Shown here in pieces: positions 58,301-58,846 of a stretch of DNA of 64,000 nt. How positions within the stretch are numbered: position 1 is the stretch's first letter; each line of letters begins with the position of its first letter. This DNA is from a virus (taxonomy: Duplodnaviria > Heunggongvirae > Uroviricota > Caudoviricetes), in the IMG/VR virus record IMGVR_UViG_3300028800_000057. The stretch is one strand, 5' to 3'. The notes beneath the pieces were generated by a model. The model was not told the DNA's origin. It worked only from the letters and a program-made list of their open reading frames with translations, and ran no database searches. The translations under genes were made by a program, and so were the position numbers.

Positions 58301-58403
58301 GTATGCACAGGTCATGCTGAGGAAGCTCTTATGAGGCCTCTTCAGCATGACAACGGAGCACTTCGTTACCCGCGGTTCGACCAACCTAGCCGCATCCATT
58401 GAA

Positions 58404-58437
58404 GTCGTACTCTGACCCTCACGGTTCAGAGTACGAC
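58404..58437 (+). other. Perfect 12-bp stem-loop (GTCGTACTCTGA / 10-nt loop / TCAGAGTACGAC) in the 5' region of gene 58487
   Basis: Read directly; the same sequence block (TCACGGTTCAGAGTACGACTCACTT) recurs in the reverse complement of 30144-30200, upstream of the fiber gene. Confidence 0.5.
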
Positions 58438-58486
58438 TCACTTCCCAACTCAACCTGAGTTCAGGATTGGAGTTGGTAACGAGCTC

Positions 58487-58846
58487 ATGTTGGTGACTGG
58501 GGTCGCTGGGACCACGTGGACAGTCTCGAGGGGAATAGAGGGTACTACGGCAGCTCATCATGCAGCTGGAACTGCCGTAGTGGCAGTTCTTACTGGGGGA
58601 GCTCTCGATGAGCTTCGAGCCGAGATTGAGGCTGAGGACCGAACAGCTTCTGGGATCAGGACCGCTTCAACTGTGGTTTCAGTATCGTCTGCTGCAGCTC
58701 CACTTGTAGGTCAAGTCCTGACTGCCATAAGTAGTACTCAGGCTAGTTGGCAAGGTAACTTGCCAGCTGCTATGGGGGCGCTTCAACCGGAGACTTTTCT
58801 ATGCGCCGGTTGTACATCAAAAAACCCACCCAGACTGATGTGCTAG
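58487..58846 (+). CDS. Tail-fiber N-terminal module paralog (short protein)
   Basis: MLVTGVAGTTWTVSRGIEGTTAAHHAAGTAVVAVLTGGALDELRAEIEAE is about 75% identical to the N-terminus of the 28101-30128 protein; only 119 aa in total. Confidence 0.45.
   Translation: MLVTGVAGTTWTVSRGIEGTTAAHHAAGTAVVAVLTGGALDELRAEIEAEDRTASGIRTASTVVSVSSAAAPLVGQVLTAISSTQASWQGNLPAAMGALQPETFLCAGCTSKNPPRLMC

Follow-up and report, generated by a model that had tools for sequence, protein, structure and literature searches.

Two interrupted members of a tail-fibre-like gene family share an N-terminal module in a 64-kb stretch of a huge-phage genome

The DNA analysed here is a stretch of 64,000 nucleotides (nt) from the IMG/VR virus record IMGVR_UViG_3300028800_000057 (Caudoviricetes), and the whole stretch is referred to as the window. 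Two loci in it carry related coding sequence in opposite orientations. Copy A is a tail-fibre-like gene of 722 codons on the minus strand (28101..30269), which extends from a GTG start at 30269 to a terminator TAG at 28103-28101 and contains one in-frame TAG. Copy B is a shorter element on the plus strand (58347..58846). An earlier note on this DNA had described the pair as a segmental duplication of the leader and N-terminal anchor of a fibre gene. A repeat search of the whole window and pairwise alignment identified one long inverted repeat between the loci, with arms at 29980-30196 (minus) and 58419-58635 (plus), which aligned without gaps over 217 nt at 74% identity. The products of the two open reading frames (ORFs) read from their ATG codons, 28101-30128 (minus) and 58487-58846 (plus), were identical at 40 of the first 50 residues (BLASTP, E = 5e-23). 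The similarity between the loci near 30 and 58 kilobases (kb) was thereby borne out, and it is collinear rather than a matter of low-complexity composition: in addition to the ungapped nucleotide alignment, the repaired copies A and B aligned column for column with 19 family members across 100 residues.

The approximately 68 nt upstream of each ATG, which had been taken for a shared leader, proved to be in-frame coding sequence of the same protein domain, as determined by in-frame translation, profile searches, tblastn, and alignment. Translation of this part gave ...VTTERFSNQASSPLSYTVESSDLSITVQSTTHFPA, a stop, and PEFRVRVGQELMLVTGV... for copy A, and a stop followed by SRTLTLTVQSTTHFPTQPEFRIGVGNELMLVTGV... 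for copy B. Among 5.8 billion proteins searched was the exact 675-amino-acid (aa) product of copy A (P0001; handles beginning with P denote proteins and those beginning with L denote contigs of relatives), the longest contig being 443,068 base pairs (bp), together with approximately 20 relatives of 397-978 aa, some of them on contigs of 510, 512, and 549 kb. All of these relatives begin MTTERFSNQAS...FPTQPEFRIRIGQELMLVTGV, and the opening common to every relative returned is MTTERFSNQASTTLASSVGSGDLSISVQGTAHFPTQPEFRIRIGQELMLVTGV.... When the relatives were compared with the window using tblastn, residue 1 was located at 30269 (through the TAG) and residues 20-23 at 58403-58412. Residues 1-47 included 24 positions that were invariant or nearly invariant among repaired A, repaired B, and 19 relatives. 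The PHROG tail-fibre profiles 6427, 8469, 1101, and 12150 matched the extended copy A from profile position 5, and the ATG-started copy A only from profile position 65. The PHROG profiles, tblastn, and the alignments thus agreed that the supposed leader encodes the first half of the putative attachment domain, and the ATG codons at 30128 and 58487 encode the Met that is conserved inside the domain (QELMLVTG) and are not ancestral starts. A metagenome scan for family loci listed at least 14 further loci, none among them from the window's own contig; the internal Met was the start in none of these, and in none of the approximately 150 best representatives whose match began at their own N-terminus. 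The appearance of a shared non-coding leader arises because both lesions described below lie in the first half of the module, which causes an ORF finder to restart at the internal Met.

P0002 and P0007 also begin with GTG in the alignment column of GTG 30269, the start of copy A. The C-terminus of copy A, VRVTADI before the stop, ends where that of its closest homologue, P0002, ends (KRVTADL). The N-terminal module, residues 1-97 (29979..30269, minus), is 65-75% identical to residues 1-97 of P0004-P0020. The distal body (28104..29978, minus) is probably a right-handed beta-helix, judging from weak matches: the Pfam family NosD matched it at E = 0.0011, which is below the Pfam cut-off, and P0002 matched Beta_helix at E = 1e-5. 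An AlphaFold 2 (AF2) model of the 675-aa product was unusable, with a predicted local distance difference test (pLDDT) score of 35. The premature TAG is codon 36 (30162..30164, minus) and stands in a column occupied by Gln (CAA) in most relatives and in copy B; no stop interrupts the 686 codons that follow it. Six contigs from six samples were identical at the DNA level across this region, so the TAG is not an assembly error. Two genes upstream of copy A, an 882-aa ORF (30759-33407, minus) matched the major-vault-protein shoulder domain (PF11978, E = 1.2e-10), which is unusual in a phage.

Copy B is divided between two frames. The ancestral ATG and codons 1-20 (MTTEHFVTRGSTNLAASIEV) occupy 58347..58415 (plus) in another frame than the rest and end at a TGA at 58413-58415. 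DNA alignment with six relatives placed a 1-nt deletion between 58406 and 58407, in codon 21. The second frame (58403..58846, plus) covers family residues 20-141 and holds the rest of the module and the linker (DRTASGIRTAST...GQVLTA...WQ). Its identity to the family consensus was 82% over residues 23-136 (window 58412-58753; tblastn). All similarity to the family ends at approximately 58753-58771 and is followed by approximately 25 unrelated codons and a TAG at 58844-58846. Directly 5' of the ATG at 58347 lies a conserved family 5' untranslated stretch, …GAGGAAGCTCTTATGAGGCCTCTTCAGC (58313..58346, plus), which aligns with those of P0009, P0014, P0018, and L030. Neither an intrinsic terminator nor a sigma-70 promoter was found near copy B, and a blastn search of 56500-64000 against GenBank phages gave no match and hence no cultured relative.

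The longer counterpart of copy B was recognised through P0056, which was found in the search of the representative library; the contig encoding it, L030, shows synteny to the window, with 77% DNA identity. In blastn comparisons, L030 1354-2480 corresponded to window 57623-58750 and L030 4140-4852 to window 58902-59611. At the deletion or replacement junction between these segments (58750..58902, plus), 152 nt in the window stand in place of approximately 1.66 kb of the L030 locus, which encodes the distal GDSL-like body. The L030 orthologue (2076-4028) has an intact 5' end, MTTERFVTRGSTSLAASIEADDLSITVQ..., without a frameshift and continues into an esterase-like body of the GDS(L) type, approximately 650 codons in all; it contains one in-frame TGA at codon 188, and gene callers split it into products of 187 and 353 aa. 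Decay of the first 20 codons of copy B was considered and rejected, the VTRGS variant being common to the intact L030 5' end. Because the L030 orthologue has approximately 650 codons, approximately 1.5 kb of which is missing in the window, and because the 5' end is frameshifted, copy B is a remnant, damaged independently by the 5' frameshift and by the loss of the distal body through a deletion of approximately 1.5 kb; it has presumably lost its function. The short copy had been proposed to be a remnant, an adaptor, or a recombination hotspot. Of these, the remnant is the one supported; nothing indicates an adaptor or a programmed recombination site, and eight independent assemblies were collinear with the window across both arms. 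As they stand, neither copy B (frameshift at codon 21, no body) nor copy A (TAG at codon 36) carries the module at the head of an intact protein that also has a distal body, whereas the relatives do. Copy B is adjoined by a 225-aa ORF (57623-58300, plus), homologues of which, 60-78% identical, lie beside family fibre genes on four other contigs (L014 7193-7858, L018 1523-1849, L030 1354-2028, and L031 5051-5722). It has no Pfam or PHROG match, and its product may be a fibre partner or chaperone.

The 1-nt deletion lies within a hairpin (58403..58438, plus) that has arms at 58403-58418 and 58423-58438, a TCAC loop, and 15 of 16 positions paired. The predicted folding energy was -24.7 kcal/mol (z = -6.9), and that of the equivalent stretch of copy A was -7.0 kcal/mol (z = +0.28); two relatives are likewise without the hairpin. 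The earlier description of a perfect 12-bp stem-loop in both copies therefore holds, with the pairing given here, for copy B and does not hold for copy A. The right arm, GGTTCAGAGTACGACT, is ordinary conserved coding sequence and encodes VQSTT. Besides the 1-nt deletion, the left arm has nine substitutions relative to the consensus of seven other sequences. Eight of these introduce a base that pairs with the right arm, and four substitutions and the deletion are located in columns where the state of copy B is unique. Compared with its L030 orthologue, copy B differs at 9 of 14 sites across 58405-58418 and at isolated positions in the flanks. Pairing is already present at 7 of the 16 hairpin positions in the family consensus. 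Template switching during replication at such quasi-palindromes is known to produce, in one step, clustered changes that perfect an inverted repeat and a frameshift (PMC7202029, PMC9435742). The change from 7 to 15 paired positions, in which every change except one matches the complementary arm, resembles the quasi-palindrome mutations of Escherichia coli and yeast hot spots and the clustered inverted-copy mutations in human genomes (PMC7202029, PMC9435742). The event in copy B is reconstructed from comparative sequence only; on this basis, the copy B hairpin appears to be a quasi-palindrome template-switch scar.

The age of the duplication was assessed from an identity matrix of the module DNA. 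Identity between A and B was 67-70%, and that of either copy to paralogues of other phages was 63-74%; copy B was nearer to P0009 and P0002 (74%) than to copy A. The proportion of synonymous differences between A and B was 0.68 (pS, saturated), the proportion of nonsynonymous differences was 0.12 (pN), and the flanks of the two copies were unrelated in pairwise alignment. The proposal of a segmental duplication was not upheld by these values: the duplication is ancient, neither recent nor segmental. Because synonymous sites are saturated while pN is 0.12, the DNA similarity of the copies is attributed to purifying selection on the protein. The ratio of nonsynonymous to synonymous substitution rates was considered for dating the lesions and was uninformative, as synonymous sites are saturated.

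The fold of the module was predicted using AF2 with residues 1-135 of P0009 (24 sequences). The model had pLDDT values of 88-96 for residues 11-80, with strands at 11-14, 24-27, 39-43, 46-54, 57-61, and 77-81, a helix at 84-101, and a linker that was disordered in the monomer. The module (approximately 97 residues) is thus probably a six-stranded beta domain followed by a helix that would begin a trimeric stalk. A profile of the module matched one PDB entry annotated as a putative tail fiber protein, 8jov_1, at E = 0.0028 (hmmsearch; from residue 1, over 101-111 residues). The same chain, from the portal-tail complex of the Ralstonia podophage GP4, was the best Foldseek match to the P0009 model (E = 3.3e-4, TM-score 0.50/0.58). 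Weaker Foldseek matches, to the N-termini of tailspikes and depolymerases, were 4y9v_A (AP22 gp54) and 9k4a_A (K64-1 S2-4), both at E = 0.015-0.04, and a baseplate protein of JBD30 was also matched. The PHROG matches covered query residues 5-99, with E values of 3e-8 to 3e-6 for the best and up to 1e-3 among 6427, 8469, 1101, 12150, and 38058, which are labelled tail fibre, tail protein, or unknown function. The profile matches to these families take in the whole module, but the E values are modest (3e-8 to 1e-3) and there is no characterised member. The module has no Pfam family.

The N-terminal approximately 110 residues of the GP4 fibre (PDB 8jov, chain 1) are thus the best match in both sequence and structure, and only the N-terminal part of that fibre (116 residues) was modelled. 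There, too, a beta domain is followed by a helix. A preprint describes three fibre types in GP4 and a continuation of its fibres as a trimeric coiled coil (10.64898/2026.04.10.717836). The differences are considerable: identity is approximately 25%, the distal domains differ, and GP4 is a small podovirus, whereas the family belongs to phages of 440-550 kb. The arrangement also resembles the depolymerases of Klebsiella phage K64-1 and gp54 of Acinetobacter phage AP22, in which a conserved N-terminal module is joined to beta-helix, esterase, or propeller bodies and many paralogues occur in a large genome. In branched receptor-binding systems, the anchors usually differ between paralogues, which dock onto one another. 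Here, in contrast, several paralogues have a nearly identical anchor (70-85% aa identity), and the Foldseek support for the K64-1 and AP22 type is weak. The relatives share the same first 97-140 residues, followed by Beta_helix, beta-propeller, GDSL lipase/esterase, or BNR/sortilin-like bodies (all weak Pfam matches), and several occur on one contig: P0007, P0009, and P0014 on one of 510 kb, and P0016 and P0018 on one of 512 kb. The idea of a conserved N-terminal anchor with swapped distal parts, for which the earlier note had suggested looking in related phages for alternative fibre bodies, therefore holds at the level of the family. These matches and the predicted fold suggest that the module is the virion-attachment anchor of the fibres.

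Within the repeat, a 25-nt block, TCACGGTTCAGAGTACGACTCACTT, is identical in the two copies (58419-58443, plus, and 30196-30172, minus; pairwise alignment) and encodes (I/L)TVQSTTHF inside the module. An exact search for this 25-mer in IMG/VR gave no match. A T7-like promoter was considered, TACGACTCACT in the block matching 11 nt of the T7 promoter core; this reading was rejected, since only two copies occur in 64 kb, they are not conserved in relatives, and the TATA-like part is missing. The blocks might be crossover sites for programmed inversion of the intervening 28-kb segment, or gene-conversion hot spots, that shuffle fibre 5' ends. They are inverted and lie within the constant N-terminal part of two fibre genes, and an exact run of 25 nt or more is longer than codon-column permutations yield (p = 0.006, a post hoc value); moreover, copy B matches copy A at 25 of 25 positions and its own orthologue in L030 at 22 of 25. 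Two of those three L030 differences form one L030-specific His-to-Arg change, however, and at the DNA level six relatives do not conserve the block. A distance of 28 kb separates the arms, where a few kb would be expected, and each of the eight independent contigs spanning an arm is collinear with the window. In the fibre switches Gin/G of phage Mu and Cin/C of phage P1, inverted sites flank a segment of a few kb that contains alternative fibre 3' parts, and both orientations are present; here the eight assemblies have one orientation, and the lesion positions prevent restoration of the frame, as inversion would repair neither gene (relative to the block, the TAG is on the 3' side and the frameshift on the 5' side). 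A Pfam scan of neighbouring genes revealed no recombinase, although no search was aimed at an invertase and the 28-kb interval was not systematically scanned. Programmed shuffling of this kind is regarded as extremely unlikely. The block is possibly a short gene-conversion patch, and a function need not be invoked.

The consequences of the lesions themselves allow several readings. For copy A, plain inactivation or a strong reduction is likely, and whether function would be lost or only reduced is uncertain. Its TAG might alternatively be decoded, by TAG-to-Gln reassignment late in infection as in code-15 phages or by suppressor transfer RNA (tRNA) read-through, in which case a full-length fibre would be made and the stop would be a timing switch. 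TAG-to-Gln recoding has precedents among phages (PMC10879173, PMC11210395), the codon falls exactly at a Gln column and is followed by an open frame, the allele is fixed in the six assemblies, and relatives encode tRNAs and a transfer-messenger RNA (tmRNA). TAG is nevertheless unlikely to be a sense codon in this genome, because it terminates 23 of 91 non-overlapping window ORFs, including copy A, at a C-terminus homologous to that of P0002, and the neighbouring 882-aa gene; because ORFs split by a single stop show no excess of TAG (TAG 1.6%, TAA 1.9%, TGA 1.3%); and because no tRNA genes were found in the 64-kb window. None of the seven tRNAs of the related contig L011 is a suppressor. Avoidance of TAG as a terminator and numerous in-frame TAGs in late genes, which characterise code 15, were not seen in the window, and copy A has a single in-frame TAG in 722 codons. 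ORF statistics computed with alternative genetic codes were uninformative on a genome-wide stop reassignment, which was rejected because of the terminators used and the numbers of split ORFs. A change from CAG to TAG is a single transition, and other family members are broken by TGA and frameshifts, which fits random inactivation. Decoding of the copy A TAG is thus considered very unlikely. A functional, N-terminally shortened fibre made by reinitiation after the TAG is unlikely, though less so. The candidate starts are GTG 30143 (19 nt past the TAG, 680 residues) and ATG 30128 (34 nt past it, 675 residues), and the shortened fibre might be complemented by a separate 35-residue peptide. The short distance to these codons, the intact long ORF downstream, and the fixation of the TAG allele in all assemblies examined are in its favour. 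The shortened product would lack, according to the model, three of the six strands of the module, which lie in residues 1-47 together with the 24 conserved positions, and the ATG falls inside strand 46-54. No ribosome-binding or upstream motif was recognisable at the internal starts, which, as described above, are not used in the family.

Copy B might also be read as coding for a short protein that still works, perhaps as an adaptor or by competing for the site at which fibres dock; translation would begin at ATG 58487 or another start, and the hairpin would be a regulatory RNA element. Its 119-codon ORF is intact and identical in other assemblies, the family 5' untranslated stretch and ancestral start are kept, the downstream module is as conserved as in intact paralogues (pN 0.10-0.17), and the hairpin is very stable. 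Against this, a protein begun at 58487 would be without half of the modelled fold, the orthologous locus is a fibre gene of approximately 650 codons, and the last approximately 25 codons match nothing. The short database members inspected look truncated by lesions, P0056 by the TGA and P0051 by an apparent frameshift. The hairpin has no T-run, as a terminator would, and no slippery sequence for -1 frameshifting is present at 58403-58413; direct reading of the overlap of the two frames (58403-58415, AGTCGTACTCTGA) revealed no X XXY YYZ heptamer, and the shift site is itself part of the hairpin, whereas programmed -1 frameshifting would demand a structure downstream of that site. A functional short protein is judged to be most improbable.

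The explanation that we consider probable is that the two loci belong to an old, multi-copy gene family in a clade of huge phages (contigs of 443-549 kb) that encodes tail-fibre or receptor-binding proteins, and that they share the N-terminal module by which these proteins attach to the virion. Copy A would be a complete, 722-codon member of the beta-helix type in which Gln codon 36 became TAG. In copy B, a single template-switch event would have rewritten approximately 14 nt of codons 20-25 as the reverse complement of the following codons, giving the 15/16-bp hairpin and the 1-nt deletion together, and a separate deletion of approximately 1.5 kb would have removed the distal esterase-like body. 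Several points weigh against parts of this explanation. The attachment role is drawn from PHROG labels and from a single solved structure, to which the homology is distant (25% identity, TM-score 0.5-0.58). Giant proteins contain the approximately 70-residue domain internally, in tandem arrays of up to 36 repeats, so its use as a building block is general and not confined to N-terminal anchors. Copy A has one lesion in 722 codons, and no intact allele was found in the databases, which makes expression conceivable; ribosomes could reinitiate at GTG 30143 or ATG 30128, or the TAG could be suppressed, and a suppressor tRNA could be located in the other approximately 380 kb of the genome, as the window represents 64 kb of approximately 443 kb. 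Past its frameshift, copy B retains 82% identity to the consensus without further stops in 114 codons, so either its decay is recent or this part is still under constraint. Finally, the hairpin may be a selected RNA or DNA element and not the scar of a mutation, an alternative against which the missing T-run and slippery site count.

Other features of the window and of related contigs were recorded. Fourteen otherwise dissimilar ORFs of 94-246 aa end in the same C-terminal peptide, [S/T/N]RYER(P/K/D/G/E)(W/P)VI before the stop, with one variant RYDRPWVV; their stop coordinates are 1819-, 2349-, 15354-, 18929+, 19524-, 19531+, 23359-, 26352+, 33992-, 34448-, 46173-, 46421-, 48150-, and 48593-. 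The peptide resembles a tag common to these C-termini, perhaps a signal for sorting, packaging, or degradation, and the repeat families D2, D3, I3, I5, I11, and I12 in the window are due to it. GGTGTA occurs 14-17 nt upstream of approximately 12 of 62 ATG starts across the window, and CGTGCGTAATA occurs 10-25 nt upstream of approximately five ATG starts and accounts for the repeat families D5, I4, and I6; both are candidate phage promoter or leader motifs. No Shine-Dalgarno signal was apparent upstream of window ORF starts, and CTTATG, examined as a general promoter, was not enriched there. A second inverted repeat (36829-36888 / 56398-56457) has arms of 60 nt that are 82% complementary and 19.5 kb apart, and tandem 12-nt repeats, AAGAAGGTTGCC, at 13476-13877 encode a KKVA-rich low-complexity stretch inside the ORF at 13249-14034. 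On the related contig L011 (805-1151 and 7801-8929), a tmRNA gene (tag ANDNAIAAAA), seven tRNA genes, and a Cas12f1-like TnpB with a resolvase lie beside the fibre gene for P0002. On L031, P0003 (2501-4959), the orthologue of P0002, is split by a frameshift near residue 530, and an extra N-module fragment, residues 1-51 (1792-1929), is located upstream of it.

The repeat is explained by known biology and overturns no current understanding. For annotation, it means that a fibre gene has been mis-called as 675 aa in public gene calls (P0001), with its start inside a domain, that the 119-aa "gene" is a remnant, and that a shared "leader" before paralogous genes can be coding sequence cut by lesions. 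If the hairpin of copy B is read correctly, it would provide a neat natural case of a gene-inactivating, quasi-palindrome templated mutation. Broken members other than A and B are the L030 orthologue (TGA), P0003 (frameshift), and P0051, which by eye looks frameshifted after GQVL. The lesions might be viewed as a host-range switch, in which huge phages keep a repertoire of fibres on one docking module and toggle its members on and off; nonsense and frameshift lesions, suppression or reinitiation, and gene-conversion patches between N-modules would be the means. There is little chance that this is correct. If it were, the switch would be mutation-driven and act at the level of the population, the single-lesion members (A, the L030 orthologue, P0003, and P0051) would be a regulated or selected reservoir, and the 25-nt block would be the footprint of one conversion patch. 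The module itself is an uncharacterised and very widespread domain of approximately 70-100 residues, present in 15,255 clusters at E <= 1e-3 in a 50%-identity representative library of 1.84 billion, which heads many fibre-like proteins of huge phages, and the frequent lesions among its bearers fit a birth-and-death turnover of dispensable receptor-binding paralogues.

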